From Candidatus Saccharimonadales bacterium (lineage in GTDB: Bacteria; Patescibacteriota; Saccharimonadia; Saccharimonadales; EFPC-124), in the NCBI GenBank assembly GCA_050730875.1, contig JBOHNX010000001.1, positions 230,620 through 294,619 of the forward strand: a stretch of DNA of 64,000 nt, read 5' to 3'. Below, piece by piece: positions 1,529-40,403 of this stretch. The notes beneath the pieces were generated by a model. The model worked only from the letters and a program-made list of their open reading frames with translations. It searched no databases and had not been told where the DNA came from. The position numbers and the translations under genes were made by a program. Numbering within the stretch: the stretch's first letter is position 1; the number at the start of each line of letters is the position of its first letter.

Positions 1529-1796
1529 AAATAAATACAGCCATGACGACTGTATGGTGTCGTTTAGTCATAATTTTAGCTTGGATTTATTCGAGAAACA
1601 CAGAACCCGCCGTCAGCGGGCTTGCGCCCCATGACCCTTTCGAGCCATGACCAAGCTAGGAGCTGAACGACGGGTTCAGTACCTAGCTTGGATTTAAAAC
1701 CATGCCTTTGCAAGCAAAGGGTTAGGTCTAGTGTATAGGTCTTACAAATGTAGGACTTAACAGTAGTGTAGCATGTAGATTTTTACTCTGCAAGGT

Positions 1797-5466: not shown

Positions 5467-6453
5467 ATGAAGCGTTTTTCTGTATTAGTTACGAACCATC
5501 TGGTACCAGAAGCTATTGAACAGCTGAAAAGTAGATACGATATAACCGAGAACTACGGTATCTCTGTAAAAGACCTGGAAGCGGTAATTGGCCACTACGA
5601 TGTCCTCCTTTGCCGCGGCGCAACAAACGTTACGAAACAAGTAATAGACGCTGCTTCGCGTGGTCGTCTTAAGCTGATCGTCTCAGCTACCTCGGGCTTG
5701 GACCACATAGATTTAGAGAGTGCCCAGCAGTCCGGGATTACCATTTGTCATACACCAGATGCTGTGACTAATGCCAACGCGGAATACAACATAAGTATGA
5801 TCATTGCACTGAGCCGTAAATTACGGCAGGCAACCGAACAGGTATGCTCGGGTGCTTGGGACCAACAGGCAATATTGGGCGATGAAATTAAGGGTAAGAC
5901 ATTGGGCCTGATCGGATTCGGTAGGATCGGCCAGCTGACTGCAAAATATGCCTCTGTTTTCGATATGAATATCCTTGCATACGACCCATACGTTGACCCA
6001 AACATCTTCTTGGAGCATAACGTCACATCAAAAACGTTAGAGTCACTTTTGAGCGAGTCGGATTTTGTGATTCTTAACTTGCCGCGCACGAGTGAGACAA
6101 AAAATCTTATAACCAAGCGCGAACTAGCCCTCATGAGGTCTACCAGTCATCTCGTACAGGTGTCGCGGGGAGGAATTGTAAACGAGGAGGATCTTATTGA
6201 CGCTTTGCAACAAGGACAAATTGCCGGCGCATGCATCGATGTATTTGAGCGTGAGCCGGATGTTGACCCTCGCTTCAAGAAATTACCAAATGTTATGCTA
6301 TCACCCCATATGGGCTGCTCTACTTACGAATCACGTTACAATGCGGGCATGTTGGCCCTCCAGCAGATCAATCAATTTTTTGCCCGTGAACCCTTGCTAC
6401 ACCTCGCAAATTACTCGCTCAAACCACGACCAACAGCCTTGACCAAGATATAG
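5467..6453 (+). CDS. D-isomer-specific 2-hydroxyacid dehydrogenase (NAD-binding)
   Basis: 328 aa; GKTLGLIGFGRIGQ Rossmann motif; catalytic region ...VSRGGIVNEEDLIDAL... Confidence 0.85.
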   Translation: MKRFSVLVTNHLVPEAIEQLKSRYDITENYGISVKDLEAVIGHYDVLLCRGATNVTKQVIDAASRGRLKLIVSATSGLDHIDLESAQQSGITICHTPDAVTNANAEYNISMIIALSRKLRQATEQVCSGAWDQQAILGDEIKGKTLGLIGFGRIGQLTAKYASVFDMNILAYDPYVDPNIFLEHNVTSKTLESLLSESDFVILNLPRTSETKNLITKRELALMRSTSHLVQVSRGGIVNEEDLIDALQQGQIAGACIDVFEREPDVDPRFKKLPNVMLSPHMGCSTYESRYNAGMLALQQINQFFAREPLLHLANYSLKPRPTALTKI

Positions 6454-6522
6454 ACTTCTTCGGCTATAATTTTTAGGTCTCTAAAAGAGAAACTATGAAT
6501 AAAATAACGATGCACCCCACCG

Positions 6523-6600
6523 GACGTAAGCTACTGCGATCCGTTCAAAAACGAGATCCAGGGGATTGCTAATAGGGTTGGTGCTCCGCACGAGCTACTG
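6523..6600 (+). pseudogene. decayed fragment of a SnoaL-like paralog (YCDPFKNEIQGI...)
   Basis: ~80% nucleotide identity over ~45 nt to codons RYCDPFKDEIQGV of gene 4644..5012; no start codon; overlaps merR 3' end. Confidence 0.4.
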
Positions 6601-6991
6601 AGGTTTGCTCAATCGCCTTTAGAAGCGGGCAATCTTTTCTGTGGTCATCGCCGTGGCAACTGCCAAGCAGTTGTTCGAGTGCGGCTTTAATAGCTAGCAG
6701 ATCGCGGATTTTTTCATCTACCTCCCCAACCTTCTGGTCGGCGAGCGTTTGTACTTCTTTGCAACTGGCGCGCCTATGTACTGATAGCTCGAGCAACGTC
6801 TTGATTTCTTGCAGGGTGAAGCCGAGTTGTTGAGCTCGCTTAATAAAGCGAACGGTTCGCACGGCGTCAGCGCTGTATACGCGATAGCCAGACTGTAGGC
6901 GTTTGGGCGGTGCCAAAAGTCCTTTGCGTTCGTAAAAACGTAAGGTTTCGGTATTTACGCCGGCTCGTTTAGCGACTTCACCTGTTAGCAT
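6569..6991 (-). CDS. merR: MerR, Hg(II)-responsive transcriptional regulator
   Basis: 140 aa; N-terminal MerR HTH (LTGEVAKRAGVNTETLRFYERKGLL) and metal-binding cysteines in RRASC...GSCHGDDHRKDCPLL matching the MerR Cys79/Cys114/Cys123 pattern. Confidence 0.85.
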   Translation of the reverse strand: MLTGEVAKRAGVNTETLRFYERKGLLAPPKRLQSGYRVYSADAVRTVRFIKRAQQLGFTLQEIKTLLELSVHRRASCKEVQTLADQKVGEVDEKIRDLLAIKAALEQLLGSCHGDDHRKDCPLLKAIEQTSVARAEHQPY

Positions 6992-7018
6992 TATATTTTT
7001 AGCTTAACACAAAAGTGC

Positions 7019-7050
7019 TTGACCTCGTACTTTAGTACGGGGTTTATAGT
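7019..7050 (+). promoter_or_regulatory. MerR-type operator/promoter: -35 TTGACC, 19-bp spacer carrying dyad TCGTAC-TTTA-GTACGG, -10 TTATAG/TATAGT
   Basis: architecture matches the Tn21 Pmer (TTGACT-CCGTACATGAGTACGG-TAAGGT) with an elongated 19-bp spacer; AAGGAG RBS 6 nt before the merA ATG. Confidence 0.7.
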
Positions 7051-7125
7051 AAATCGTGTAAGAATAAATGAAGAGGAAAAATGTACCGGCTATTAGCAAA
7101 ACTCTGGAAAGTGTAAGGAGTTCTT

Positions 7126-8533
7126 ATGACCAAAAGGTACGATCTAGCAATCATCGGCGGCGGGGCTGGCGCCTTTGCTGCTGCAATTAAGGCGAACGAG
7201 TTGGGCGCAAAAACAGCGCTCATTAACGATGGCTTGCCGCTTGGCGGCACCTGCGTGAACGTTGGCTGCGTGCCGTCAAAGGCATTGCTTCACGCCGCAG
7301 AAGTTGTGCATACCGCTCGTAGTCATGGTATCCCTGGTATCAACTTTGAGCTTACGCCACTAGATTTTGGGAAGGTTGTCCAGGACGAGCTGAACTTGGT
7401 TGATAGTCTGAGACATGAAAAATACGAACAAGTACTACATAACCTGTCACACGTTACCCATATTAGAGGTCGGGCTAGCTTTACTTCGCCTCGAACAGTG
7501 CAGGTGAACGGCCAAACCGTAGAGGCAGAAAAGTTTATTATTGCGACGGGCTCGACTGCTACTGTGCCACCGATTGATGGCTTGCAAAAAACGGGCTTCC
7601 TTACCCACATCGAAGCGCTCAAACGCAAACAATTACCGAAAAGCCTGGCCATCATCGGAGCCGGGCCCCTGGGGCTGGAGTTTGCTCAAATGTACGCCCG
7701 ATTTGGCTGTAAGGTAACAATTTTGCACAAGGGGCCTTCTATCGCGCCCCAAGCTGAACCTGTGTTGTCGCAAAAATTGCACGATATTCTTTCCCGCGAA
7801 GGTATTGATATTCAAACCAATGTTGAGGTTCAAGGTGTACAAACCCAAAGCAGTTCAAAAATAGTGCGTTACCTGAGCGCAGGGCAATCGTCACTGCTCG
7901 AAGTCGAAGAAATACTGATCGCTGCTGGCAAAACCGCCAATACTTGGCAGCTCGATCTGGATAAAGCGGGTGTCGCCATCGACGAACATCAGGCAGTCGT
8001 AACCAAACCTAACCTGCAAACTTCGCAAACAAATATCTACGCTGTTGGCGATGTTACGGATTTGCCAAAACGGTTAGAAACGACTGCTGGACATGAGGGT
8101 ACGTTGGCGGCGGAGAATGCCTTAAGCAGTACTGGCCAGTACATCAATTACGACTACGTCCCCTACACTATCTTCACTGACCCGCAATTAGCGTCCGTAG
8201 GCCTGACAGAAGCTGAACAGATGAGTCGCAGCGGCGTCTGTGCCTTGCCGTACCGTATCGTTTGCGCAACTACCCCGGGGCATCATCAACCGCCGCACCG
8301 AAGGGCTCATTAAAATGGGTATCGATCCGCGCACCAAACGAATTGTTGGCATCCACATTTTGGCGCCTCAGGCAGGCGAACTCATTGCTTACGCCATGAC
8401 GCTCGTACAAAATAAAAACACCATCGATGACGTTGCCAACTCGCTACCAATGTTCCCGACCATGGCCGAAGCGATTAAGATCGCGGCACTCTCGTTTACA
8501 AAAGATATCAACAAACTTAGCTGCTGTGTTTAG
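7126..8533 (+). pseudogene. merA: mercuric reductase MerA (no N-terminal NmerA/HMA domain), interrupted by a single-base frameshift near 8236-8242
   Basis: FAD site GGTCVNVGCVPSK with redox-active CxxxxC; C-terminal KLSCC in the second frame 8240..8533; the two ORFs overlap and together give ~469 aa. Confidence 0.8.
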
Positions 8534-8614
8534 GAGGTCGGTATGAGAATCGAAGGCAGCAATCATTGTTTGGCTGAGTAAAGTATATAAAATATAGAAG
8601 AAGGAGCAAATCAA

Positions 8615-9142
8615 ATGGCAAAACAAGAATCTTACTTACCCCGCACAGGCCCTGTTGGACGGCTAGCGCGAGTTTTTTTGTTCGCCTTGCTAGTGTGGCT
8701 GCTTTACAACACGCTTTCGGGTGGCATACATAAGTATGAGGGTTTTGGAACCGACACTGTGCTCTGGGCGCAAACCGGTCTTGCTCTGTTTGTCTTAAAG
8801 GATGCGCTGGGCATGCTCTGGCCGCGAATAGGGTTTAAGCTTTGGTTGTGGGGCGTAATACTCGTTGCCTTAGTGGGTGCGGTAAGTGCATTTGCGGTTT
8901 CTGGAATGATTTGGGCTGCACCACTGCCCCAGCTTGTTTGGATCGTGAACGTAGTGGGATTTTCGGTTTTATCCGTGGAGTTCTTGCTAGCGATATTCCT
9001 GGGCACGCCTGGGTGCGAAAAAGGAGTGATTGCCGAACTCCGCGCCCGCTCCCGTGATGAGCAAGTTCCACCCGCGCCTAGCTGCATCATTGGATTGCAC
9101 CACATCGATGCCTGGGAAGCACAGCACCGTCGTTCCAAGTAA
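8615..9142 (+). CDS. hypothetical 4-TM membrane protein
   Basis: 175 aa with four hydrophobic helices; family not recognised; lies directly downstream of merA. Confidence 0.4.
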   Translation: MAKQESYLPRTGPVGRLARVFLFALLVWLLYNTLSGGIHKYEGFGTDTVLWAQTGLALFVLKDALGMLWPRIGFKLWLWGVILVALVGAVSAFAVSGMIWAAPLPQLVWIVNVVGFSVLSVEFLLAIFLGTPGCEKGVIAELRARSRDEQVPPAPSCIIGLHHIDAWEAQHRRSK

Positions 9143-9546
9143 AATATAGGTTCTTGAAGTTGCATTTTGCCTGTAACTGGGTCCCGTTGTATTGGGGAGT
9201 CGCCAAGTGGTAAGTAAAGCAGCCCTTTAAGGGGTTGCTTTTTACGACACAAAGAAGACTGAGCACAAATTGTTTTACTTAGTTTTGTAAATTTGTTTGA
9301 CATCTGTTGTTAAATAATTTATTGTAAGAAGTGTTGTGGCTGTTGCAACGCGCCTAAATGGCGCAGAGCGAGGGTAGAGTCACAACCTACGGCATAAAGG
9401 GGTAACTCTTGGCAGTTTCCCCTGAAAATCCGACTTAGCTGTTCTTATCTTTACAAAACTGCGAAGGCCTTTTGTGCCGCACCTTAACAACTTGATGACC
9501 TCCTAAATAATTCAGACATGACCCAATTTGAAGGGATGGTTAGGCA

Positions 9547-12465
9547 ATGCAGTCGTCCGAAGTGGTCGCCATGCGTCCACGCGTGTTGAACTGGCACCAA
9601 GCGGTGCACTTCTTTTTGCGAGTGGCGCGCTTTGGTATGGTGGGCACCGTGTGCCTGCTAGTGCAGCTCGGCATCATGTGGTTCTTGGTGAATCACGGTA
9701 TCCACGAAAGTCCGGCCAACTCGACCGGGTTCCTACTATCGGCGCAGCTGAACTTTGTGCTGAGTCGCAATTTTACATGGGGGGACAGAACCAAGCAAGG
9801 TCTGCTTCTTGCTAGGCGCTTTGCGCAATGGGTGGCGTTTAATAGCGTCGTCTTGGCAGGGGCAGTCGTCAACTTCCTAGCTTTCGCGGGAGCAACTATG
9901 CTGGATGTACCAATCGTCTACGCCGCAATTGCGGCTGTCGTGCTCGCTATGGGCGTGACGTTCACCTTACACCACTTTGGTGTTTTCAGGCGGCGTCGGC
10001 CCGAGAAAACCGCACTGGTAACCGCCGATCAACTCCGGCAGGTGGCCACTCCACCCGACATGACAAGAGCAAAAGAAGGCGTGGCGTTTTTCATGCCCGC
10101 CTGGAATGAACAGGGCAACATCCGCACTGCTGTGGAGTCGATCCGCAGCGTTCTGAGCGATCTGGGTATGCCGTTCCATGTGTTCGTCATCGATGATGGC
10201 AGCACAGACCTCACGCACGCTGTGGCCAAAGACCTGGCCAAGAAGCATGGCGATGTCACGGCGGTCCATCAGCGCAACCAGGGGTATGGTGGTGCACTGC
10301 GTACCGGGTTCAAGGCCAGTTACGAGAGTGGCTACGGCCTGATCGCCTTCTACGACTCTGACAATCAGTTCCATGCCGAGGATTTCCTGCGTCTACTCGG
10401 TCGCATGCACGAAACCAACGCCGACATGGTGGTCGGCCAGCGAATCAAGCGGGCTGATGGCCTGAGGCGTCTGCTCATGGGCAAGCTCTGGCATTGGCTG
10501 GGGCGCGTCGCGCTGGGCTACAGCGCACACGACGTTGACTGCGGTTTCAAGCTGATGCGGCGCGAGGTGCTGGAGAAGATCCTCCCTCACCTACGCGGCG
10601 AGAAGGCTGCCATTTCACCGGAGCTGCTGGCCTACGCCTGCGGCTTTGGGTTCAATGTGCAGCAGGTCGGTGTGCGGCATCGGCCGCGGCTTAAAGGCGA
10701 ACAGTCAGGTGCAAGCCTGCCTGTCGTCATCGGCTCGATTATCGGGCTCTTCAAGATCCGATCCAATGTACGTAGCGTGCTGCTAGCCGAGGGTATTCGG
10801 AAACACCGACGGCGGCGAATCGATCCGGTGGTGAAAACGGTTGTCGTTCTCGCCAGCTTGCTATCGATCGGCGCGTTCACCTACTTCTACGCACGGGGCG
10901 AGACTCTGGCCTACACGGACAGTATTTCGCACCTGATGATCGCCCGCCGAACTATCGACAGCCCAACACAAGGGCTGGCACAGCTCGGTGGTGTGTGGCC
11001 TCCGTTGCCTCACCTGCTGATGCTTCCCTTCATCTGGAACAACTGGTTGTACTACAGTGGCGTTGGCGGTAGCATTGCTTCGATGCTGGCGTACGTGGTC
11101 GCCACGGTGCTGATATACAAGTTCGTCCGCAGCCTTACGAAGCGAGCGTGGCCAGCGGTGGCCGCGGCCGCTATTTTCGCACTCAACCCGAACGTGCTCT
11201 ACATGCAGGCAACTCCGATGACGGAGATGTTGCTGCTGGCGAGCATCATGGGAGCGGTGTACGGGCTGCTCCGCTGGATCCAGACCAAACACTACCTGTA
11301 CCTCATCGCATCGGCTGGTGCGGCGCTGGGCGCCACGCTTATCCGGTACGAAGGCTGGGTGTTAGTAATCGCGCTGGTGCCGGTTATCGTGTTTGCGGTA
11401 ATTCGGCAACGGCTCGGCCGGGCACAGCTGGAGGGTGCGTTGATCGCATTCCTCACTATGGCCGGCGCCGGCATTGGCGGGTGGTTGCTGTGGAACCAGC
11501 TCATCTTCAACGACTGGCTGGCGTTCCAGCGGGGAGAATACGCAAAGTCATCACTGTGGGTGGGCGCGGGCGAACTGGCGGTTGGCCAGATAGATATCGC
11601 GTTTATGGCCTACACTTGGGCGACGCTAGGTAACGTCACACTGGTGTTCGGTGTCTTGGCCGCAGTCGGGCTCATTGTGTATTTGGTGCGCAGTCGGCTG
11701 TCGGCCGAATCCGCACCTGCGCTGGCGCTGCTGGCGTTCTTCCCCTTCTTCGTGCTGGCACTGTACGCAGGTCAGCGTCCGCTCCACGTTACGCAGATCC
11801 ACAACGACATGTACAACACCAGGTTTGGCCTGGTGATGATTCTGCCGACGGCGGTGTTCGTTGGCTACTTGGTTTCGGTGCTTCGCCGGCCGAAGTGGCG
11901 GGCGTTGCAAACACTATCGCCTATCCTCGCCTGCTGCTTGGCAGTTGGCGTGAGTGCGGCGATGCTGGCAAGCGGAAACACGATTACACTCCAAGATCCG
12001 CTGGCCGAAAAAGCCGAGATTTCCGACCAGTTGGCGCGCGCCGAAGCGGCGTTTTTGCGCGATAACTACACCGGTGGCAAGGTGTTGGTCGAAGCGTTCG
12101 GGAACGAAAGCGTGGTTTTCCATTCTCGCATCCCTCCGGGTGAAGTCATCTACGAGGGAAGTTACCGAATCTGGGAGCCGGCGCTGGCGAACCCGCTGGA
12201 ACACGATATCCAGTGGATCATCATGCGTCGAACGCCCGGGACCGAAGACCTCGTGTACAAGGCCGTTCGAGACACGGCGCGCCTGCAAGGTAACCTTCTC
12301 GACGGCTTTTATGTGCAGGTCTACGCCGACTCAAGCCGACTCATCTTCGCAAGCCCTCAGGCTCAGCGGAAGATGAGCTACGCGCAGGACGGCACTCACC
12401 TGCAAGATGGCGTACCAATCACCTATGTGCCGAAGGAACATTCAAGCCGATCTCCAGGAAGGTAA
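9547..12465 (+). CDS. triple-fusion glycosylation protein: GtrA-like 4-TM domain + GT2 polyprenyl-phosphate sugar synthase (DPM1/GtrB/ArnC-like) + GT-C ArnT/PMT-like multi-TM domain
   Basis: 972 aa; N-terminal GtrA-like helices; GT2 FFMPAWNE...VFVIDDGSTD...YDSDNQF; C-terminal ~550 aa polytopic with YARGETLAYTDSISHLMIARR loop; ~60% GC. Confidence 0.8.
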   Translation: MQSSEVVAMRPRVLNWHQAVHFFLRVARFGMVGTVCLLVQLGIMWFLVNHGIHESPANSTGFLLSAQLNFVLSRNFTWGDRTKQGLLLARRFAQWVAFNSVVLAGAVVNFLAFAGATMLDVPIVYAAIAAVVLAMGVTFTLHHFGVFRRRRPEKTALVTADQLRQVATPPDMTRAKEGVAFFMPAWNEQGNIRTAVESIRSVLSDLGMPFHVFVIDDGSTDLTHAVAKDLAKKHGDVTAVHQRNQGYGGALRTGFKASYESGYGLIAFYDSDNQFHAEDFLRLLGRMHETNADMVVGQRIKRADGLRRLLMGKLWHWLGRVALGYSAHDVDCGFKLMRREVLEKILPHLRGEKAAISPELLAYACGFGFNVQQVGVRHRPRLKGEQSGASLPVVIGSIIGLFKIRSNVRSVLLAEGIRKHRRRRIDPVVKTVVVLASLLSIGAFTYFYARGETLAYTDSISHLMIARRTIDSPTQGLAQLGGVWPPLPHLLMLPFIWNNWLYYSGVGGSIASMLAYVVATVLIYKFVRSLTKRAWPAVAAAAIFALNPNVLYMQATPMTEMLLLASIMGAVYGLLRWIQTKHYLYLIASAGAALGATLIRYEGWVLVIALVPVIVFAVIRQRLGRAQLEGALIAFLTMAGAGIGGWLLWNQLIFNDWLAFQRGEYAKSSLWVGAGELAVGQIDIAFMAYTWATLGNVTLVFGVLAAVGLIVYLVRSRLSAESAPALALLAFFPFFVLALYAGQRPLHVTQIHNDMYNTRFGLVMILPTAVFVGYLVSVLRRPKWRALQTLSPILACCLAVGVSAAMLASGNTITLQDPLAEKAEISDQLARAEAAFLRDNYTGGKVLVEAFGNESVVFHSRIPPGEVIYEGSYRIWEPALANPLEHDIQWIIMRRTPGTEDLVYKAVRDTARLQGNLLDGFYVQVYADSSRLIFASPQAQRKMSYAQDGTHLQDGVPITYVPKEHSSRSPGR

Positions 12466-12471
12466 CTGTCC

Positions 12472-14034
12472 ATGACTGTCACGTTGCACGAGGTAACATC
12501 CACTCCAGTTCGGCGCGACTCGGCCCGGATCGTCATGTCGGGCGGCCAAAAGCTGTTCGCCATGGCGCTGCTGATACTGCTTGGGCTGGATGCGTACTTC
12601 CTGGGCTGGAAGCATCTGCTCATCGTGCTGATCGCTGCATCACAAGTCTTCTACCTGGCATTCGTCGGGTTGAAGTTACTGTTGATGGGGTACTCGTTCG
12701 GTGCGCCAACCGCCGATGGAAAAGGTAGGCTCCCAAGCCTCTACGACCCTGACCTTCCGGTGTTCACCGTTCTTGTGCCGCTCTACAAGGAAAAGCGGCC
12801 CACCATCCTCGGGCTGATCCGTTCGCTGGATAGGCTGCAGTATCCGAAGGATAGGCTGCAAGTCCTCTTGCTGCTCGAGGACCCGAAGGCTGCGCCGGCG
12901 GCAAAGGTTACGCACGAGGCGGTCGATGCCATCGATCTGCCATTAAACGTGCAAAAACTGACGGTGCCGAGCCGGAGCACACGCACCAAACCGGGTGCGT
13001 GCGACTACGGCTTAGCGCGCGCCCGGGGTGATTACACGATCATCTACGATGCCGAGGACCGGCCGGAACCGTTGCAGCTCCTCAAGGCTGTCGCCGGTTT
13101 CCGAAACCTCGGCGAAAACTCCAAGGTCGTCTGCCTGCAGGCGCGGCTAGAGCACTGGAACGTCCGCCGCAACCTCATTACGCGGATGTACTGGGTCGAA
13201 TACGTGTGTCATTTCGAGTTCATCCTTACAGGGCTGGCTAGGCTCGGCCTGGTACCGCCCCTGGGGGGAACTTCGAACATCTTTGTAACTGACGTGCTGC
13301 GCAGAATCGGGCTCCCGCCCGAAGAGCTGCTGCGTGGCGACATGGATCCCGCCGAATTCGCCGGCGCATGGGACCCATGGAACGTCACCGAAGATGCTGA
13401 CATTGCCGGCTGGCTAGCCAGGAACGGCTACCACGTAGCGATGATCGATTCCTTCACGCTGGAGGAAGCCTCACACAAACTCCGCATTGCCGCGAACCAG
13501 CGTGCACGGTGGGGCAAGGGCTACTTCCAGACTGGTCTGGTGCATACGCGCCGACCGCTGAGCGGCATGTGGCAGATGGGACCACGCAAGTGGATCGCAT
13601 ACAATCTGCTGATGCTCGGCACGCCGATCTCCCTGATGATCAACCCGATCTTCTGGGGGCTGACGATCACCTACTTCGCGACACGCTCGACCTTCATCGA
13701 GTCGCTGTTCCCGCCGTGGGTATTCTATGTCGGCGTCATGACCGCTGTCGTCGGCAACTTCCTGATGTTCTATCAGCTCATCATCGCCTGTCTGCACCGC
13801 GACGAGCCTGGGAATGTGAAGTACATGTTCCTGGTGCCGTTGTGGTGGGCGTTCTCGTCGTACTCCATGTGGAAGGGTGTGCTGGAACTGCTGCTTCCGT
13901 GGCTGCGGTTCCACTGGCACGCGACCGAGCATGGGTTCGCTGACGAAACAAGAGAAGAGGAGGCTATCGAGTACCGACTGGCTCTAGCGGTAAAAGCAGA
14001 TGCAGATCGCATCTCGCTCGCTGAAGCCAGCTGA
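12472..14034 (+). CDS. processive family-2 glycosyltransferase (cellulose/chitin/NodC-type synthase) with integral membrane domains
   Basis: 520 aa; DxD in IIYDAEDRPEP and Q(Q/R)xRW in ANQRARWGKG; N- and C-terminal TM helices; separated by 6 bp from the preceding gene. Confidence 0.8.
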   Translation: MTVTLHEVTSTPVRRDSARIVMSGGQKLFAMALLILLGLDAYFLGWKHLLIVLIAASQVFYLAFVGLKLLLMGYSFGAPTADGKGRLPSLYDPDLPVFTVLVPLYKEKRPTILGLIRSLDRLQYPKDRLQVLLLLEDPKAAPAAKVTHEAVDAIDLPLNVQKLTVPSRSTRTKPGACDYGLARARGDYTIIYDAEDRPEPLQLLKAVAGFRNLGENSKVVCLQARLEHWNVRRNLITRMYWVEYVCHFEFILTGLARLGLVPPLGGTSNIFVTDVLRRIGLPPEELLRGDMDPAEFAGAWDPWNVTEDADIAGWLARNGYHVAMIDSFTLEEASHKLRIAANQRARWGKGYFQTGLVHTRRPLSGMWQMGPRKWIAYNLLMLGTPISLMINPIFWGLTITYFATRSTFIESLFPPWVFYVGVMTAVVGNFLMFYQLIIACLHRDEPGNVKYMFLVPLWWAFSSYSMWKGVLELLLPWLRFHWHATEHGFADETREEEAIEYRLALAVKADADRISLAEAS

Positions 14035-14141: not shown

Positions 14142-17100
14142 GTGGGCAGATACGAACATTCCAAGACGCTACGGCCACTTGCATACTTTATATTGGCCGC
14201 TATAACATTCGTGTTGTTGGCGGTAGGCGCAATTGGCGGTAATCGGGCGGCATATGCTGCTCCTCCACCGGACCTTGAACGCACTCCACTTATTACTGGA
14301 CTTAGTGAACCAACGGCTTTCCGGCATTTGCCAGACGGCCGGATTTTAATTGCCGAAAAAGCTGGCGCAATTAAGCTCTCTGCCGATGGGCAACCACTTA
14401 CCACAGTAGTAACGATACCAACCGACCACCGTGAAGAACGTGGTCTTTTAGGGATTGAACCGGACCCCGATTTTGCGACCAATGGGTGGCTCTACGTTGC
14501 TTATACAACGGCAGCCAACTATGACCGTCTTTCGCGCTTTACCATGACTGGCGGTGGTAGCATCGCTTTGGGCTCGGAAATTGTGCTGCTCGAATCAACT
14601 CAATCTGCCGATATATTCCATCATGGTGGCGAGGTGCGTTTTGGGCCGGATGGCAAACTGTACTGGGCAATGGGCATGAATACCTTTAGCCCTAATTCGC
14701 AGGACTTAACGAACATTCACGGTAAAGTTTTGCGGCTCAATAAAGACGGCAGTATTCCGCCGGATAACCCATTTGTTAATACGCCAAATGCAGTTGACCA
14801 AATTTGGGCGTATGGTTTGCGTAATCCCTTCCGATTTACCTTTACGCCAAACGGCAAACTATTTGCCGGCGATGTGGGCGGTGATTCTTGGGAAGAATTG
14901 AATTTTGTGCAGTCAGGCGGCAATTATGGGTGGCCAGCAGCAGAGGGCAATTGTACGGCTTGCCCTTATATTAATCCTACCTATGCTTACCCCCATACGC
15001 CTCCCCCTGCAAAGGCTGGTTCAATTTCTGCAACTATGGTCTACGCTGGCTCGAACTTGCCGGCGCAGTACCAGGATAAATTTTTTATAGGTGATTACAC
15101 GCTTGGCTGGGTGAAGTATTTGACGTTCGATGCTGACTATTCGACCTTTATTTCTGAACATATGTTTGACCCCGAAGCTGGCACTATCGTGCAAATAAGC
15201 CAAGGGCCTGACCAAAATATCTACCAACTTAATATTTATCCGGGCGTTTTATACAAAATTGCACCATCTGGTGGGAACCGCACACCAACTGCTGTGGCGA
15301 CGGCAAATCCGGTGGCTGGGCTGGCGCCGCTGGACGTTACTTTTAGCTCGGCTGGCTCAAACGACCCAGATGGCACACCGCTTACGTACAGCTGGGACTT
15401 TGGCGACGGCACAACATCGACCGAAGCGAATCCGACAAAAACTTACACGATAAACGGGACCTACAACGTAGTTTTAACGGTCAGTGATGGCGACAAGTCT
15501 GCAACTGCAACCGTGAAAGTAACGGTTGGTAACCGTTTGCCAACGGCAACCATTACTGCACCAACCAACGGCGCTAATTATAATGCGGGCGACACAATCG
15601 CTTTTACCGCCACCGGTACCGATCCAGAAGACGGCGACTTGCCCGACAGCGCATTTACCTGGAAGGTCGAATTCCATCACGCCGACCATATTCACCCATT
15701 TCGCGATTCGATTACAGGTAAAACTGGAATGGTTGAACTTGCAACCAGCCCAGATAACAGCAGTACAACATGGTACCGGTTTATCGTGACGGTTACTGAT
15801 TCGGCAGGGCTTACCGATACAAAATCAGTCGATATTTACCCGAACCTGGTTGATATAACCTGGACTACAAATTATCCAGATGCAAAGTTCACGATAGATG
15901 GTATTCCCTACATTGGTTCGCGTACCGAACGCGCGGTGGTTGGAGTGCGTCGGGTGCTCGATGCACCATCGCCGCAATATGTGGCAACTACACAATATGT
16001 GTTTAGCAGTTGGTCCGATGGCCAACCGCAAAATCACACAATAACCACGCCGGCAACCAATACCGCTTACACGGCCAACTTTAGTCAATTCCAGCAACCA
16101 CCAGCGCCGTGGCGATCACAAGATGTTGGTCCGACGGTCGCTACTGGGTACGACTCGTACGATAACGGTACGTACACAGTCCGCGGAGCCGGCGGCGACA
16201 TTTGGGGAACGATTGACGAATTCCATTATCTGCACCAGCCGCTAAACGGCGATGGCGAAATTATTGCCCGCGTTACTTCGCAAGATCGTACTAGCGACTG
16301 GGCAAAATCTGGCATTATGATTAAAGAGTCGGCTACGCCAGGCGCTAAATATGCATTGCTGGCTGTGACCCCAGACAACGGCATTAACTTCCAATACAAC
16401 TTTGATGGCCAGGGTGCTAGTACGCCTTACACTTTCCCGAACGCGTGGTTAAAACTAAAACGAGCTGGCAACGTTTTTACCGCTTATACGTCAGCAGATG
16501 GTGCGACTTGGACACAGCTTGGTGCACCGGTAACAATTGATATGGCATCGAGTGTAACGATCGGCCTCTTTGTTTGTTCGCATCAATACGGCGTGCTCAA
16601 TACGAGCCAGTTCGATAACGTTAGTGTAAACACAGGATGGTCTAATCAGGATATTGGTGAGCCGGGTGTGGCTGGATCGGCTACGCAGGCAGCAGACGGC
16701 ACCTATACTGTCAAAGGTTCTGGCAATGACATTTGGGCCGCGAACGATCAGTTCCATTACGTGTATCAGCCGTTAGTTGGCGATGGTGAACTAAGCGCGC
16801 GAGTAACATCGCAGACCAATACGGAAGGTTGGGCAAAAGCTGGCGTGATGATAAAACAATCTACCACAGCTGGTTCGCCGTATGCTCTTGTGGGTGTAAC
16901 GCCAGACAATGGTGTGAACTTCCAGCATAGTTACAATAGCAACACGGGCGGTGGACCCTACGCTTTCCCGAATGCTTGGCTCAAAATAAAACGCGTTGGA
17001 TCGATCATTACTGGTTACACGTCGTCCGATGGTGTTACTTGGACGGAGGTTGGCACGGCCAATATCACAATGACGCCGGATGCAACTATTGGTCTGTTTG

Positions 17101-17726
17101 TCACCTCGCACAATAACACCGCGCTAAGCACGGCAACATTCGACAATATTCAGCTCGTAACTACTCCTCCACAAAGCACACAACCACCAGCGCCGTGGGA
17201 GGTCCGCGACGTTGGCTCACCGGCTGTGGCTGGTTCTAGCAACTACACCAATGGCGTGTTTACATTGAATGGCGCCGGCGAGGACATATGGGCGCTGACC
17301 GATCAGTTCCACTTTGTACATCAAACATTGCCAGCAAGTGGCGAAATAGTCGCGCGCGTCACATCTCAGGGTACCGAGACCGGTGGCTGGGCAAAATCCG
17401 GCATTATGATTAAGCAATCCACGGCAGCTGGTTCGCCGTATGCCCTGCTTGCGGTAACACCTGATAATGGCATTAATTTACAGCACGATTTTTATAACAA
17501 TACTGCCGGTGGCGCCTACACCTTTCCGGTGTGGTTGAAGTTGACTCGAAATGGCAACATTGTCCAGGCATACAGGTCGACCGATGGCGCCACCTGGACC
17601 GAGGTTGGCACGGTAACGACGACTTTAGGGTCGGGCAGTGTGCAAGCGGGCTTATTTGTCAGCTCGCACAACGGTGCCCAGCTGAATACGTCAACCTTCG
17701 ATAACGTATCGGTTACGCCGTATTAA
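14142..17726 (+). CDS. secreted multidomain protein: PQQ-type soluble glucose/sorbosone dehydrogenase-like beta-propeller + 2 PKD domains + 4 tandem DUF1349-like (concanavalin-A-like jelly-roll) repeats
   Basis: GTG start with AAGAGGGG RBS; signal/TM at N-terminus; HLPDGRILIAEKAG...ERGLLGIEPDPDF propeller; PKD motif WDFGDGTTS; four ~145-aa repeats GxGxDIW...D.FH....L.GDGE..ARV...WAK.G.MIK...WLK..R.G. Confidence 0.75.
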   Translation: MGRYEHSKTLRPLAYFILAAITFVLLAVGAIGGNRAAYAAPPPDLERTPLITGLSEPTAFRHLPDGRILIAEKAGAIKLSADGQPLTTVVTIPTDHREERGLLGIEPDPDFATNGWLYVAYTTAANYDRLSRFTMTGGGSIALGSEIVLLESTQSADIFHHGGEVRFGPDGKLYWAMGMNTFSPNSQDLTNIHGKVLRLNKDGSIPPDNPFVNTPNAVDQIWAYGLRNPFRFTFTPNGKLFAGDVGGDSWEELNFVQSGGNYGWPAAEGNCTACPYINPTYAYPHTPPPAKAGSISATMVYAGSNLPAQYQDKFFIGDYTLGWVKYLTFDADYSTFISEHMFDPEAGTIVQISQGPDQNIYQLNIYPGVLYKIAPSGGNRTPTAVATANPVAGLAPLDVTFSSAGSNDPDGTPLTYSWDFGDGTTSTEANPTKTYTINGTYNVVLTVSDGDKSATATVKVTVGNRLPTATITAPTNGANYNAGDTIAFTATGTDPEDGDLPDSAFTWKVEFHHADHIHPFRDSITGKTGMVELATSPDNSSTTWYRFIVTVTDSAGLTDTKSVDIYPNLVDITWTTNYPDAKFTIDGIPYIGSRTERAVVGVRRVLDAPSPQYVATTQYVFSSWSDGQPQNHTITTPATNTAYTANFSQFQQPPAPWRSQDVGPTVATGYDSYDNGTYTVRGAGGDIWGTIDEFHYLHQPLNGDGEIIARVTSQDRTSDWAKSGIMIKESATPGAKYALLAVTPDNGINFQYNFDGQGASTPYTFPNAWLKLKRAGNVFTAYTSADGATWTQLGAPVTIDMASSVTIGLFVCSHQYGVLNTSQFDNVSVNTGWSNQDIGEPGVAGSATQAADGTYTVKGSGNDIWAANDQFHYVYQPLVGDGELSARVTSQTNTEGWAKAGVMIKQSTTAGSPYALVGVTPDNGVNFQHSYNSNTGGGPYAFPNAWLKIKRVGSIITGYTSSDGVTWTEVGTANITMTPDATIGLFVTSHNNTALSTATFDNIQLVTTPPQSTQPPAPWEVRDVGSPAVAGSSNYTNGVFTLNGAGEDIWALTDQFHFVHQTLPASGEIVARVTSQGTETGGWAKSGIMIKQSTAAGSPYALLAVTPDNGINLQHDFYNNTAGGAYTFPVWLKLTRNGNIVQAYRSTDGATWTEVGTVTTTLGSGSVQAGLFVSSHNGAQLNTSTFDNVSVTPY

Positions 17727-34421: not shown

Positions 34422-37400
34422 CTACTGTACTGCTCGGAAAGCGACCATTTGTGAAAGGTAACGGTGCGCGAGCGCGAAGGTGTTTGTTGAGGCAACTTGC
34501 CCAGCCGTTGGTTGGACCATGTCTTGCGTAAAGAGATCTTCGTTATTGACCGAGTTTCGGTACGTGAATCCTGTGCCAGCGGTGATATCGGTTGTCCCAG
34601 TGTCATCCATAATCGCGCCGAAGATTAAGGCGCCGTTGGCTGTGGTTGTGGCGTTGCCACTCGTGATTGCATCTGTGCCAGTAGTGCCGACGGCATTATT
34701 CATGGATGTGACATCCACAGGGTTCGCTGTGTCGATGCCGCTGTACTCATGAATAACCAGGCGGTGGTATTTGGCCGATGCGCTAAAGCTCACTGTCACC
34801 GTATTTGCGCTAGCTTTCACATTGGTCGCGTAGCAAACCGCAAGCGACTGGTTTTTAGTGCTGTCGTATTGGCGGGTAGCAATTGCGTAGACATTACCTT
34901 GTGTGTCGCTACAAGTTGGGTTTGCGTTGCTGCCCCACGAGAATGCAACCACAATTGTATTGCCGATGGTGTTTGGTGTGTCAAAGGCTTGGCTGATAGT
35001 GGCGGCTGACGAGGTGCCGATAGAGGTAGCGGCGGCGTTTTGAATATGGGCGATAGGACTTGGCACGGGGTCTGCCTCTGTTGTAAAGCTGAAGTCACCC
35101 GAAGCCGCAAGGTTCCCTGCACTATCACGCGAAAGCACACGGTAGTGGTAGGTGGTGTTTGATGCCAGGCCACTTAAACCTGCGCTGTGCGAAGTCGCAA
35201 GCGTGGCATTAAGGGGTGTGCTCGAACCATAGGCGGCTGTGGTGCCATATTCAACCTGTGTGTCGGCAGCCTCGTCGGTCGTCCATGTGATGGTAGCAGC
35301 ATTGGTCGTCACGTTCGAACTGCTCACGGCAGAGATGGCCGGCGGAGTGGCATCTGCCGGAGGGGCTGCTTCGGTTGTAAGTGTGGCGCTTGCCGATGTT
35401 GCCACATTGCCAGCCCCGTCCCGCGAAAGTACCCGGTAATGGTATGTCGTACCCGGCTGCAGGCCGCTTAAGGCGTTGCTATGGCTGGTGGTTAATGCGG
35501 TGTTAGGGGCTGTGACTGAGCCAAACTGGTCAGTTGTGCCGTATTCAACTTGCGAATCTGCAGGTTCATCGGTGTCCCAAGTTATAGTTGCTGAGCTTGT
35601 GGTCGCGTTAGAACTCACGATATTCGATATGACTGGCGGTGTAGTGTCTTGCACTGGCGGCTGGGCGGTTGTAAACGTAAAGTCGCCTGACACAGCACTG
35701 TTGCCAGCGGCATCTTTTGAAAGCACGCGGTAATGGTACGTTGTACCGGCTTGCAAACCGCTAAGGTCCGCGCTGTGGTTTGCCGTCAGGTTGGTGCCGA
35801 GCGGTGTGCTCGAACCGTAGGCGGTCGTAGAGCCGTACTCTACTAGGCTGTCAGCTGGCTCGTTAGTTGTCCACTGCACTGTTGCGCCGGCCGTGGTGAC
35901 GTTTGAGCTTGCGACATTGCTGATGCTTGGCGCAGTGGTGTCGGTCGGCGTGCCAGTTGCGAGATCTTGAATTTCTGCTGCGTCAAGCGCGCGACTGTAC
36001 ACGCGGGCATCGTCAATCTTACCGTCCCATTCGCTCGAGTTGCTGCCGGGGTTGCGGCCGATATTTACGCCAACTGTCGGGTCGGTATCGATGGCGCCTG
36101 TCTTCCCTACCCAGCCGACTTCAGTACCGTTGAGGTAGAGCTTCATGGTGGTGCCATCGTAGCGAGCAACAACATGGCTCCACTGGTTTAGCGGGACGTT
36201 GCCGGTAGTGGCGATGAGCGTTTTTGTGGTTCCGCCAGCTTTTAGGCGGAAGCGGAGCACCGTTTGGGTATCTTTTTTGAAAGTCGAAAGCATCCAGTAG
36301 TGGCTTTGCTCCGAGCTGCCGTTTGCTTTGGAGATGATGCGGTTGTCTTGGTAGCTGCCGGTAAACGAGTCGGGGTTGACCCAGGCGCTGATTGTCATTG
36401 CTTGGCCGCTTACGTCAAATGGTTGGATATTCACGTAGTCATCGGCACCGTCAAAATTGACCGCGTTACCAAAACGCCCTGGCGATACGAAGTTCGCGCC
36501 GAGTTCCAGGGTACCGCCTCGCCCGTTCCCTGAGCTGTCTGCTGCCAAGAGCCCGCTTGCTTCGTCAAATTGCCAGTGTCCTTGAAGCGTTGGTGGTACA
36601 ACGGGTGTCGTAAACGTTTCGTCGGTTGATGTTGCCACATTGCCAGCCCCGTCCCGCGAAAGTACCCGGTAATGGTATGTCGTACCCGGCTGCAGGCCGC
36701 TTAAGCTTGCACTGTGGTCTGCCACCATTGTTGCGTTGGGCGGCGTGCTTTGGCCGTAAGCCGTGGTGGTGCCGTATTCTACTTGGCTGTCAGAGACTTC
36801 GTTCGTATTCCAGGTAATGGTGGCTCCAGTTGCTGTGACGTTGTTGCTGGCAACATTTGAAATGACTGGAGCGGTTGTGTCGGGAGTTGCAGTTGTAAAC
36901 GTCAGGTCCGCGGAGACAGTTTGGTTGCTGGCAGCATCGCTTGAAACAACCCGGTAGTGGTACGTTGTCCCAGGGGCAAGGGCGTCCAGGTTAACCGTGT
37001 GTTGCGTGCCAAAGCCTGCCACGGTTTTGGTGCTGCCGTAGGCGGTGTCGGTGCCGTACTCGACTCTGCTGCTGGCGGCTTCGTTGGTCGTCCAGCCGAC
37101 CGTAGCACTGCTTTGAGTCACGTTGGTGGTAGCGACGTTGCTAACAACGGGTGGTGTGATGTCTCCCCCAGACCCGAGCGGCGTGATGGTCACATTGCCA
37201 TACGTCGCGTCGACATGGTGTGCAACAAGCGCGAGTGAACCGTTGGCCAGGCCGCCTGCCGGCACGGTGTTTACAAGGCTCCAGGTTGCTGGCTCAGGTT
37301 GTCCGGCTTCCCACACCTTCATACTGTAGGTGCTACTACCGTCAGGCTGGGTTTCTACCCGCTGTTTCATGAGATAAGTTGTTCCGACTACAGGAGTAGA

Positions 37401-40400: not shown

Positions 40401-40403
40401 CAT
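34422..40403 (-). CDS. giant secreted protein: FG-GAP/VCBS beta-propeller repeats + LamG-like domain + ~6 fibronectin type III domains + C-terminal domain
   Basis: 1993 aa; signal peptide; repeated DxDGDGxxD/DINNDG motifs; LamG-like NFDGADDYVNI...ISAWV; FN3 repeats PPVISNV...VEYGTT..YG. Confidence 0.85.
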   Translation of the reverse strand: MKKTFSRLNYGLAAALFAVFSVAGPLLAALPAKAATVPFTLSTIEAAQAPWGKNLADVDGDGLLDAITGGGGQGTNIYWYKNPSWTKFQIGTLGGDDDLQVGDINNDGATDVIVNGGIAWYENPHGSGGNAQGPWTHHVIDTANSHDLQVGDMNADGKLDVVTRGVGELGTTHVYLQGATADTWTKFRLNNAPYAQGTALTDIDRDGRMDVVGNGYWLKQPASNITDGTAWLRYTITLWTDGCSTTVADINKDGRMDVLLAPSEAGLGTLAWFENPTDPINGAWTRHDVSDGSMDDIHRFHVNDIDKDGNLDIVYAEMHQSATDRVGVFYGVSNGASWTHQTIAATGSHNIALGDVDNDGDTDIFGANWSATQAPDQGNLNLWKNELNSGSTPNAWSYITVDSTKTEKAFGLDFGDMNRDGQKDIIAGHYWYRNPGSNLNGAWTRTDLGAGKDAMLVLDVDSDGQLDIISQTRSTTAPIDITWHKPNDAAATTFTNTVIGTIPNTSRDRVSQGYELADIVPGGKPELVFSGDEGWYYFSIPANPAAGAWPRVQVNTDGTQEGIAAGDINKDGRVDLVGAWHGSRTTEGLKVNWWNNPGTGAGSWAKNFVGDTTAEMTRVEVADVNGDSLPDIIATEDNLDTQQGLLHWYEQTSTGGWVPHTIATGLGSIESMDIGDFTRDGKIDIVTGEHRGGNLATVVWANVGGGASWNSYTVDTGKESHNGARSADLDGDGDLEIVSIGYDTYQTVRLWRNDSIVGTPAPADVVDVWYGNNQVFGDKGTPQNWVNILGTADPTVTSLSYTLNGGVSKQLSIGADERRLARPGDFNIDLAITDLVPGSNTVRIIAADSAAGTVTEDVTVQYQNNQVWTLPYTADWSAATKISDVSQVVDGYWTLTPEGVRSSVPDYDRLVAIGDKAWTDYEVTVPITIHNVDFASSQTSQSGGRPAIGLIMRWTGHTDDPIAGMQPKSGWNPNGAIGWWRWNSDQTTAQLQHYGINNGVASTPVVGTTYLMKQRVETQPDGSSTYSMKVWEAGQPEPATWSLVNTVPAGGLANGSLALVAHHVDATYGNVTITPLGSGGDITPPVVSNVATTNVTQSSATVGWTTNEAASSRVEYGTDTAYGSTKTVAGFGTQHTVNLDALAPGTTYHYRVVSSDAASNQTVSADLTFTTATPDTTAPVISNVASNNVTATGATITWNTNEVSDSQVEYGTTTAYGQSTPPNATMVADHSASLSGLQPGTTYHYRVLSRDGAGNVATSTDETFTTPVVPPTLQGHWQFDEASGLLAADSSGNGRGGTLELGANFVSPGRFGNAVNFDGADDYVNIQPFDVSGQAMTISAWVNPDSFTGSYQDNRIISKANGSSEQSHYWMLSTFKKDTQTVLRFRLKAGGTTKTLIATTGNVPLNQWSHVVARYDGTTMKLYLNGTEVGWVGKTGAIDTDPTVGVNIGRNPGSNSSEWDGKIDDARVYSRALDAAEIQDLATGTPTDTTAPSISNVASSNVTTAGATVQWTTNEPADSLVEYGSTTAYGSSTPLGTNLTANHSADLSGLQAGTTYHYRVLSKDAAGNSAVSGDFTFTTAQPPVQDTTPPVISNIVSSNATTSSATITWDTDEPADSQVEYGTTDQFGSVTAPNTALTTSHSNALSGLQPGTTYHYRVLSRDGAGNVATSASATLTTEAAPPADATPPAISAVSSSNVTTNAATITWTTDEAADTQVEYGTTAAYGSSTPLNATLATSHSAGLSGLASNTTYHYRVLSRDSAGNLAASGDFSFTTEADPVPSPIAHIQNAAATSIGTSSAATISQAFDTPNTIGNTIVVAFSWGSNANPTCSDTQGNVYAIATRQYDSTKNQSLAVCYATNVKASANTVTVSFSASAKYHRLVIHEYSGIDTANPVDVTSMNNAVGTTGTDAITSGNATTTANGALIFGAIMDDTGTTDITAGTGFTYRNSVNNEDLFTQDMVQPTAGQVASTNTFALAHRYLSQMVAFRAVQ

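Follow-up and report, generated by a model that had tools for sequence, protein, structure and literature searches.

A single-chain GtrA-GT2-GT-C protein paired with a processive glycosyltransferase in a putative glycan synthesis-and-decoration cassette of Candidatus Saccharimonadales

Introduction

In the GtrA/GtrB/GtrC system of Shigella and Salmonella phages, which glucosylates O antigen, and in the ArnC/ArnE-F/ArnT system, which acts on lipid A, the same three-step logic applies: a GT2 glycosyltransferase produces a polyprenyl-phosphate sugar inside the cell, flipping of this product by a small membrane protein is proposed, and a GT-C glycosyltransferase transfers the sugar outside. GtrA itself has been described as "a proposed flippase" (PMC11127046). 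The CsbB/GtlA-GtcA-YfhO/GtlB systems for lipoteichoic and wall teichoic acids and GacI-GacJ-GacL, which are found in monoderm bacteria and decorate wall polymers on the outside, combine a GT-A synthase, a GtrA-type protein, and a GT-C enzyme with an acidic motif in its first loop (PMC8035078, PMC5836110). Here, we describe a cassette in which a three-component system of the Gtr/Arn/CsbB-YfhO type is joined to a synthase-dependent polysaccharide pathway. It lies in a 64-kb stretch (here called the window) of the 556-kb contig JBOHNX010000001.1 from a Candidatus Saccharimonadales metagenome-assembled genome (MAG; GCA_050730875.1) and consists of open reading frame (ORF) A, which carries all three components, ORF B, a processive GT2, and a third partner gene, ORF C (Table 1).

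The likeness to the Gtr and Arn systems lies in the modules, since ArnC and GtrB rank among the best matches of the ORF A GT2 by both structure and profile, and Pfam identifies the N-terminal module as GtrA. Unlike those systems, ORF A is one chain of 972 amino acids, its GT-C belongs to an uncharacterized PMT_2 subgroup with its own C-terminal domain, and it is partnered by a processive synthase in place of a pathway for O antigen or lipid A; among phages, no full-length relative was found. The CsbB and Gac systems also spread their components over separate proteins; their GT-C is a YfhO-type enzyme (PF09586) and not PMT_2, their acceptors are teichoic acids or a rhamnan, and neither PMC8035078 nor PMC5836110 mentions fused forms of such systems. 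Dolichyl-phosphate mannose synthase (DPMS) of Pyrococcus furiosus (PDB 5mlz) gave the GT2 module its best sequence match (1.4e-32) and likewise combines a GT2 with a GtrA-like transmembrane (TM) domain in one protein; there the TM domain follows the catalytic domain, whereas in ORF A it precedes it and a GT-C is appended. An actinobacterial three-component precedent is offered by PpgS (Rv3631) with Rv3632 and Rv3779, which presumably act as its partners in mycobacteria. ORF A has a weak NCBIfam match to PpgS (1.4e-12) and is not its orthologue; equivalog scores for the GT2 module fall far under the cutoffs for PpgS (47 against 370), ArnC (49 against 529), and AglJ (53 against 325), so that orthology to a named enzyme found no support.

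ORF B shares with BcsA, class I hyaluronan synthase, PgaC/IcaA/XagB, and chitin synthase the D, DxD, TED, and QxxRW motifs and a GT-A domain set on a TM channel, and its homologues are annotated by JGI as XagB or as cellulose- or poly-N-acetylglucosamine (PNAG)-synthase-like. Unlike those synthases, it is always paired with a Gtr-type module; with no PilZ domain, 38 bits against a cutoff of 699 for CelA, and no match to PgaC_IcaA, it is not an orthologue of cellulose or PNAG synthase. The hyphal-tip glycan system CslA-GlxA of Streptomyces, in which a cellulose-synthase-like GT2 stands beside a membrane-anchored extracellular oxidoreductase working on or together with the glycan, is analogous to ORF B with the GSDH-type ORF C. 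It differs in that the oxidoreductase is a copper radical oxidase rather than a PQQ-type GSDH propeller and in that it has no Gtr-type decoration module. The Actinoplanes "gsf" GtrA cluster (PMC13390465) was considered as a further precedent and set aside, as it has no GT-C and is not homologous.

Architecture and predicted topology of ORF A

ORF A is a single frame uninterrupted by stop codon or frameshift. The initial annotation had read three modules in one polypeptide of 972 amino acids, and Pfam bears this out with three families above the curated gathering thresholds, at which Pfam matches were counted throughout: GtrA_DPMS_TM (PF04138; residues 28–147, 61.7 bits against a cutoff of 26.1), Glycos_transf_2 (residues 182–345, 101 bits), and PMT_2 (residues 507–625, 31.5 bits against 26.1), the last of which is marginal and recurs in most homologues. 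An AlphaFold2 (AF2) model based on 20 homologues (mean predicted local distance difference test [pLDDT], 84.4; predicted template modeling score [pTM], 0.69) places four TM helices (16–145), an α/β GT-A domain (~176–415), ~11 to 12 membrane helices (427–840), and a C-terminal α/β domain (841–950) in that order. The helices of the GtrA module span residues 16–49, 54–77, 88–118, and 123–145 in the model, with hydropathy peaks in agreement, and its positive charges lie in the loop 78–87 and beyond residue 146, a positive-inside pattern. The 44 lysine and arginine residues between 146 and 426, which take in the GT2 domain and Arg/Lys-rich linkers, would by charge place this part in the cytoplasm. 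Model and charge distribution thus agree on one predicted topology, with GtrA N-in/C-in, GT2 inside, and the first GT-C loop, which carries D458, outside.

When the family profile of the GT2 module was compared with solved structures, P. furiosus DPMS was followed by ArnC (~1e-21) and GtrB (~2e-15), and other GT2 enzymes matched at 4e-14 or weaker. Foldseek ranks 1 to 22 were all ArnC, DPMS, and GtrB. Residues D217, D270, D272, and Q274 are at least 90% conserved (20 homologues; conservation was read from 20 aligned sequences for ORF A and 22 homologues for ORF B). Profile and model together assign the module to the DPMS/ArnC/GtrB type of polyprenyl-phosphate sugar synthase and not to other GT2 enzymes.

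GT-C enzymes have 8 to 13 TM helices and a catalytic acidic motif in the first outer loop (PMC5836110). The corresponding part of ORF A has ~11 to 12 long helices between residues 427 and 840 in the model and nine hydropathy peaks, and directly after the TM segment 427–449 stands the motif Y456-T-D458-S-I-S-H462, in which all 20 aligned sequences have Y456, D458, and H462. The acidic motif is a single Asp, i.e., modified rather than DxD. A PLPH488 motif and R600-Y-E-x-W604 are also invariant across the 20 sequences. In Foldseek, the module matched Stt3 (7oci_F, 2.5e-6) and DPY19 (7zli, 3.7e-6), with a TMq of only ~0.3 for the whole chain. The C-terminal domain, α/β in the model, matched no Pfam family; it is also joined to GT-C in 91 stand-alone GT-C proteins among the best 150 cluster representatives described below.

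TABLE 1 Features of the 64-kb window, with positions counted from its first nucleotide
Feature	Position	Strand	Description
ORF A	9547..12465	+	972 aa, single uninterrupted frame; GtrA, polyprenyl-phosphate GT2, GT-C, C-terminal domain
GtrA-like module, aa 22-148	9610..9990	+	Four TM helices, predicted N-in/C-in; PF04138, E 1e-16
GT-A/GT2 module, aa 176-415	10072..10791	+	Predicted cytoplasmic; polyprenyl-phosphate sugar synthase type; DDGS216, DSDNQ270
GT-C module, aa 426-840	10822..12066	+	~11-12 helices; invariant D458 in YTDSISH, predicted first extracytoplasmic loop
C-terminal domain, aa 841-950	12067..12396	+	Family-specific, soluble, predicted extracytoplasmic; invariant G852-N-E854, E870-G871...W876
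Shine-Dalgarno-like GGAAGG	12457..12462	+	In 3' end of ORF A coding sequence; ends 9 nt before ORF B ATG
ORF B	12472..14034	+	520 aa, membrane-embedded processive GT2; 2 N-terminal and ~4 C-terminal TM helices; DAED193, TED306, QRARW343
ORF C	14142..17726	+	1194 aa; N-terminal membrane anchor, GSDH beta-propeller, PKD/Ig domains, 3x DUF1349 (Pfam)
Sigma-70-like promoter matches	9297-9325 and 9484-9511	+	In AT-rich intergenic 9297..9511; 10/12 consensus each; total not above shuffled expectation
MerR-family regulator	6569..6991	-	Divergent neighbor of the split oxidoreductase
Split oxidoreductase	7126..8313 and 8240..8533	+	Pyridine-nucleotide-disulphide oxidoreductase in two overlapping ORFs
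Surface protein	34422..40403	-	1993 aa; FG-GAP, fn3, LamG, purple-acid-phosphatase-N repeats
Deacetylase-GT2 pair	41390..43129 and 43126..44415	-	Polysaccharide deacetylase and second processive-type GT2
LOOT RNA (RF03000)	1618..1728	-	Rfam, 79 bits against gathering 46.4; full model length
Ribosomal protein L10 leader (RF00557)	61173..61316	-	57 bits
ORFs downstream of the L10 leader	60593..61117 and 60190..60570		Taken as putative L10 and L7/L12

ORF B and its junction with ORF A

A processive QxxRW GT2 synthase with its own membrane channel had been read 6 bp beyond ORF A, and both motifs and fold agree with this. ORF B matches Glyco_tranf_2_3 and Glyco_trans_2_3 in Pfam; D193, E195, D196, E307, D308, and R344 are invariant among its homologues, and Q343, R346, and W347 are conserved in at least 90%. 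Its model (pLDDT, 90.9; pTM, 0.91) has a GT-A domain packed on a TM channel, and Foldseek returned BcsA (4hg6; TMq, 0.58; root mean square deviation, 6.5 Å over 494 columns), hyaluronan synthases of vertebrates and a Chlorella virus, and chitin synthases. Family GT2 enzymes invert, and the product of ORF B is thus expected to be a β-linked chain. The two genes are separated by positions 12466–12471 (junction GGA AGG TAA ctgtcc ATG), and the placement of the GGAAGG within the end of ORF A would fit translational coupling of ORF B to ORF A.

Fusion states and conservation of the cassette

Module hidden Markov models (HMMs), built from our own alignments and scanned over 120 listed ORF A homologues, found the order GtrA-GT2-GT-C-C-terminal domain (CTD) in 48 of them, with Herbidospora, Glycomyces, Actinomadura, Nonomuraea rosea, and an Acidimicrobiales MAG among the carriers of the triple fusion. 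ORF A of the window is its own 50% cluster representative. In an exhaustive HMMER search of 1.84 billion cluster representatives, the best 150 were classified by architecture: stand-alone GT-C-CTD was the most frequent (91), followed by GtrA-GT2 (14), GT2-GT-C (12), the triple fusion (11, plus 2 truncated), processive GT2-GT-C (5), and PPGS-processive GT2-GT-C (2).

ORF maps and Pfam scans of fetched loci reveal a series of fusion states. In locus L013, GtrA, GT2, GT-C, and B are four consecutive separate genes; in Mycolicibacterium rhodesiae (L023) and a Saccharibacteria MAG (L026), the genes are GtrA-GT2, GT-C, and B; and in Nonomuraea the GtrA part is missing. A Ktedonobacteraceae MAG (L066, 3847..8870) encodes a processive GT2-GT-C protein of 1198 amino acids followed by a GtrA-GT2 protein of 416, and in a Ktedonobacterales MAG (L039, 5908..10512) a PPGS-type GT2, a processive GT2, and a GT-C are joined in one ORF of 1534 amino acids. 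Processive GT2 and GT-C are also found in a single protein in P0075, P0081, and P0085, as in L066, and such fusions occur in Chloroflexota. Because the same module order recurs in many homologues and forms part of this series, comparison of the sequences excludes a frameshift or misassembly as the source of the fusion in the window. The initial annotation had raised the question of whether the fusion was conserved or a local artifact; it is found in many independent genomes. Its presentation of the triple fusion as unusual holds in part: the single chain is real, but it is not unique, being one of several recurrent states of a widespread module.

In Frankia sp. CNm7 (L081, 6118..9575), the GtrA part lies in a different frame from GT2-GT-C and is annotated as a separate gene of 179 amino acids. 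The annotated protein of 950 amino acids at this locus has a nonhomologous, probably out-of-frame N terminus, and the arrangement is either a genuine split or an assembly frameshift.

In all close relatives whose contigs reach far enough (L001–L033, L035, L055, L068, L081, and L083–L085, to which this count is confined), the homologues of ORF A and ORF B are neighbors, and the major clades of the GT-C tree recur in the B tree. This adjacency, the matching clades, and the natural processive GT2-GT-C fusions are, by Rosetta-stone reasoning, evidence that the GT-C would work with the processive synthase. The initial annotation had left the acceptor open between a cell wall polymer, lipid, or protein; the adjacency of B and the fusions in Chloroflexota point to the polymer of ORF B.

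The cassette is abundant in databases under generic names and uncharacterized. It represents a widespread, unnamed module for glycan synthesis and decoration in Actinomycetota, Chloroflexota, and Patescibacteria, with Herbidospora, Glycomyces, Actinomadura, Frankia, and Mycolicibacterium as cultured actinomycetotal carriers. Several low-GC MAGs (0.35–0.47; L022, L043–L045, L047, L050, etc.) are labeled "uncultured Gammaproteobacteria/Pseudomonadales"; their GT-C relatives cluster with Patescibacteria, and the labels may be unreliable.

ORF C, an accessory partner

The block of 9547–14034 proposed in the initial annotation does enclose both GC-rich genes, but the conserved unit reaches on to ORF C, which is not GC-rich and had been overlooked. 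ORF C has one TM segment (residues 13–31) and is found in the order A-B-C or C-A-B in Frankia, Herbidospora, Glycomyces, Mycolicibacterium, L083 (a 5-kb contig), and L084 (a mid-GC metagenomic contig). A homologue is present in ~22 of ~40 close loci; since about half lack it within 6 kb, ORF C is an accessory and not an obligate part of the cassette. It probably binds or modifies a glycan outside the cell. In L085, a second mid-GC metagenomic contig, the slot after A-B (5895..10727) is occupied by a protein of 1610 amino acids with a PQQ_2 β-propeller and DUF1349 repeats instead of the GSDH-PKD-DUF1349 arrangement. This suggests that DUF1349 repeats are the constant feature of the slot beside A-B.

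Composition of the block

The block had been described as visibly GC-richer (about 60%) than its surroundings and rich in spurious ORFs, and both descriptions hold. In 1-kb bins, GC is 0.59 to 0.60 for 10001–14000 against ~0.49 to 0.51 in the flanks, and at 150-bp resolution the step coincides with the start codon of ORF A and the stop codon of ORF B, with AT-rich intergenic DNA on both sides. The excess lies at silent sites. GC at third codon positions (GC3) is 0.717 in ORF A and 0.756 in ORF B, against a mean of 0.511 (standard deviation, 0.046; range, 0.39 to 0.60, with a maximum of 0.595) in the 37 other genes of the window, which served as the native reference (z = 4.4 and 5.3), and ORF B has the largest relative synonymous codon usage (RSCU) distance, i.e., the most deviant synonymous codon usage, in the window. 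The GC and codon-usage check that had been proposed thus returns a block of foreign composition. These 4.5 kb also contain about eleven ORFs of 80 amino acids or more in alternative frames or antisense, as would be expected of coding DNA rich in GC3.

The same excess is seen elsewhere. GC3 of A-B exceeds that of the flanks in L018, the complete Saccharibacteria genome CP023991.1 (0.88–0.90 against 0.53), in L029 (0.76–0.78 against 0.55), L026 (0.55–0.60 against 0.40), L013 (0.63–0.66 against 0.54), and L022 (0.58–0.62 against 0.47), so that A-B is raised in all six low-GC hosts examined, while it equals its neighbors in Frankia, Mycolicibacterium, L084, and L085. The last two (GC, ~0.57; GC3, ~0.62–0.77) show that donors with exactly the composition of the cassette in the window exist.

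Two explanations other than transfer could be offered for this composition. A sharp step at both ends of the block, in a genome assembled from a metagenome, is what would be seen if two higher-GC genes had been spliced into the contig by chimeric assembly or binning. Yet the block lies 9.5 kb inside the window and within a contig of 556 kb, comprises two complete genes and nothing more, bordered on either side by normal AT-rich intergenic DNA, and stands directly upstream of its usual partner ORF C, and the same GC3-rich A-B is found between low-GC flanks in the complete chromosome CP023991.1 and in four other independent low-GC assemblies; an artifact of this kind is very unlikely. That gene-specific selection, acting for instance on mRNA structure or on the translation rate of polytopic membrane proteins, has raised GC3 in a vertically inherited cassette would accord with the elevation of A-B, and not of ORF C, in all six low-GC hosts. 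We rejected it, as very improbable, on the finding that distant family members in low-GC candidate phyla radiation (CPR) and Chloroflexota genomes have the GC3 of their flanks (0.29 against 0.25, 0.17 against 0.17, and 0.53 against 0.52). Other membrane proteins of the window are also not raised (major facilitator superfamily [MFS], 0.53; cation diffusion facilitator [CDF], 0.57; DUF389, 0.50), and the Saccharibacterial copies are polyphyletic, lie at nonsyntenic sites, and differ in fusion state.

Origin and probable horizontal transfer

The host assignment of the contig is sound: the best non-self match of its BipA/TypA is 84% identical, in CP023991.1 (1,005,782 bp), and the named matches are Saccharimonadales or Patescibacteria, so that by BipA the host is a genuine member of Saccharimonadales. 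The nearest sampled relative of the cassette is L083 (60%, 70%, and 70% identity for A, B, and C, respectively), and the nearest named relatives are Frankia (50% for A and 56% for B) and a Streptosporangiaceae MAG. The prediction that relatives would be found in Actinobacteria was therefore well placed, with Frankia, Streptosporangiaceae, Herbidospora, and Glycomyces the nearest named. In neighbor-joining trees, computed from simple distances with bootstrap, the window and L083 fall together with Frankia and the Streptosporangiaceae MAG, a grouping with bootstrap 81–87 in the GT-C tree and 100 in the B tree. The GT-C tree also puts L018 and L013 with mycobacteria at 99, a placement that receives only 30–51 in the B tree, and joins L026 to L029 at 98. 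The Saccharibacterial copies are thus interleaved with Actinomycetota, and they also differ in organization, with those of L018 and L029 unfused and that of L026 partly fused. No flanking gene is shared between the window and the other Saccharibacterial sites within the fetched flanks.

Because of the GC3 pattern, the tree topology, the fusion states, and the nonshared sites, the data indicate repeated transfer of A-B from Actinomycetota-like donors to Saccharibacteria. Of the recent horizontal acquisition proposed in the initial annotation, the acquisition is supported by foreign composition and phylogeny; "recent" can be meant only in a relative sense and the donor is unsampled, because the nearest relatives are only 60 to 70% identical, with Frankia at 50 to 56%.

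Two further arguments about the route of transfer were considered and dropped. An in situ replacement relative to the CP023991.1 site is unsupported, as no flanking gene is shared within the fetched flanks, and the difference between 84% identity in BipA and 48% in A-B does not by itself prove independent acquisition, BipA being unusually conserved.

Proposed mechanism and alternative acceptors

The reading that we favor, with moderate confidence, is that ORF A is a single-chain three-component glycosylation system that decorates the polymer of ORF B, and that A-B was acquired from an Actinomycetota-like donor. The cytoplasmic GT2 module would use a nucleotide sugar to charge polyprenyl phosphate with a sugar; the GtrA-like four-helix module would take the lipid-linked sugar across the membrane, or hand it on; and the GT-C module, with D458 as the putative catalytic Asp and an outer C-terminal domain, would pass the sugar on to an extracellular acceptor. 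ORF B would polymerize a β-linked polysaccharide and extrude it through its own channel. The acceptor would most likely be this nascent polymer, yielding a side-chain-decorated exopolysaccharide or wall glycan, with ORF C probably as an extracellular binding or modifying partner. A-B probably entered this Saccharimonadales genome from a mid-to-high-GC Actinomycetota-like donor, and similar transfers probably took place independently in other Saccharibacteria.

Two alternatives concern the acceptor. ORF A could instead be a fused Ppm-Pmt-like machine for protein O-glycosylation, with mannose or another hexose, for which ORF C would be the main target and ORF B a separate neighbor. The family to which its GT-C matches, PMT_2, is named after protein mannosyltransferases, and the best sequence match of its GT2 module is a dolichyl-phosphate mannose synthase; ORF C, moreover, is a frequent partner (~22 of ~40 close loci), membrane anchored and extracellular, with Pro/Thr-rich linkers such as TTPPQSTQPPAPW. 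We nevertheless consider protein O-glycosylation unlikely, though it is the main rival, as B is adjacent in all close relatives while C is missing within 6 kb in about half, and an irrelevant polymer would leave the fusion of GT-C to a B-type processive synthase, as seen in Chloroflexota, without a ready explanation. ORF A also has no PF02366 (PMT) match, no MIR domain, and no NCBIfam or PDB match to a characterized Pmt. The same adjacency, which appears obligate in the close clade, the matching clades, and the Rosetta-stone fusions also argue against a further possibility, namely that ORF A, in the manner of ArnT, YfhO, GtrC, and Rv3779, decorates a lipid, a lipoglycan, a teichoic-acid-like polymer, or peptidoglycan already present in the envelope, with no involvement of ORF B, which would make a separate polymer or glycolipid. 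This would be in keeping with the characterized three-component systems, all of which act on polymers or lipids of other pathways (PMC8035078, PMC11127046), with the distant stand-alone GT-C-CTD relatives, and with the weak NCBIfam scores of the GT2 module for PpgS and ArnC; on balance, it seems rather improbable.

Several observations weigh against decoration of the ORF B polymer by a transferred A-B pair. The assignment of acceptor and sugar is guilt by association, with no characterized member of the family, and full-text literature searches returned no description of a GtrA-GT2-GT-C fusion or of the four-module cassette. Distant stand-alone GT-C-CTD relatives often have no adjacent B, so that the coupling of A and B is clade-specific. 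A solved GT-C relative of the GT-C module, sought by sequence profile, gave no match, and the fold scores are only modest. As to transfer, the nearest relatives are only 50 to 70% identical, which fixes neither donor nor date, and some of the deeper nodes of the neighbor-joining trees are weakly supported. The 64-kb window contains no tRNA, no integrase lies nearby, and the repeats flanking the block are only short ones at chance level. A phage carrier found no support, since tblastn of ORF A gave only matches to the GT2 domain in phages and none of full length, and a plasmid vehicle was rejected, the single full-length match in the plasmid collection being an 11.85-Mb Nonomuraea replicon filed as a plasmid. 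ORF C, finally, has native GC3 in the window (0.49, against 0.72 to 0.76 for A-B), which is not accounted for by a one-step transfer of A-B-C.

GC3 of ORF C is also below that of A-B in L022 (0.28 against 0.58–0.62) and L026 (0.42 against 0.55–0.60) and is intermediate in L083 (0.63 against 0.72–0.75), and ORF C, a syntenic neighbor of A-B across phyla, clusters with the same actinobacterial and mid-GC relatives as A-B in a weakly supported tree. It may be that ORF C came earlier and that A-B cassettes were exchanged beside it later, or that ORF C ameliorates faster.

Significance of a single-chain system

To our knowledge, the flippase role of GtrA-type proteins has never been shown directly, nor has the manner in which the synthase, flippase, and GT-C cooperate physically. 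ORF A, if it acts as proposed, would be a natural single-chain model for flipping and hand-over by GtrA, and the sister fusions of GT-C to processive synthases would also be of use here. Together, these proteins would be a target for cryo-electron microscopy and reconstitution and are Rosetta-stone evidence that the modules act as one machine. Repeated transfer of envelope-glycan genes from Actinomycetota to Saccharibacteria would also bear on how epibionts build their surfaces and interact with their hosts; cultivated Saccharibacteria are described as growing on Actinobacteria (PMC10633639). We speculate, as a long shot, that ORF A runs a closed micro-cycle of the lipid carrier, in which the carrier-linked sugar is made, flipped, and consumed within one chain docked on the synthase to branch the nascent polymer, and that epibiont Saccharibacteria have repeatedly copied the cassette of their actinomycetotal hosts to display a surface glycan of host type for attachment or for escape from host defenses.

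Other features of the window

Upstream of ORF A, promoter and terminator scans gave counts not above shuffled expectation, and a search of 9100–9600 against Rfam returned nothing above noise. A second GC-rich stretch (0.555–0.575, 35–40 kb) was considered as another island and rejected: it corresponds to a single surface protein in which GC2, i.e., GC at second codon positions, is raised (0.515) and GC3 is only borderline (0.595, z = 1.8), and its GC excess is mainly an effect of amino acid composition.

A pair of genes with native composition encodes a polysaccharide deacetylase and a second processive-type GT2, which has DAD, TED, and QRFRW motifs and is 22% identical to ORF B. The pair resembles a PNAG- or chitin-like system, and the genome may thus have its own synthase-dependent glycan pathway besides the acquired one. 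A pyridine-nucleotide-disulphide oxidoreductase beside a divergent MerR-family regulator is split by a frameshift in its dimerization domain, with Pyr_redox_dim positions 1–20 closing the first ORF and 31–109 in the second, overlapping one; it is either a MerA-like pseudogene or a sequencing error. Two RNA elements, a LOOT RNA and a ribosomal protein L10 leader, were identified by Rfam, and the ORFs that follow the leader are taken as putative L10 and L7/L12 on the strength of the leader match and of their location.

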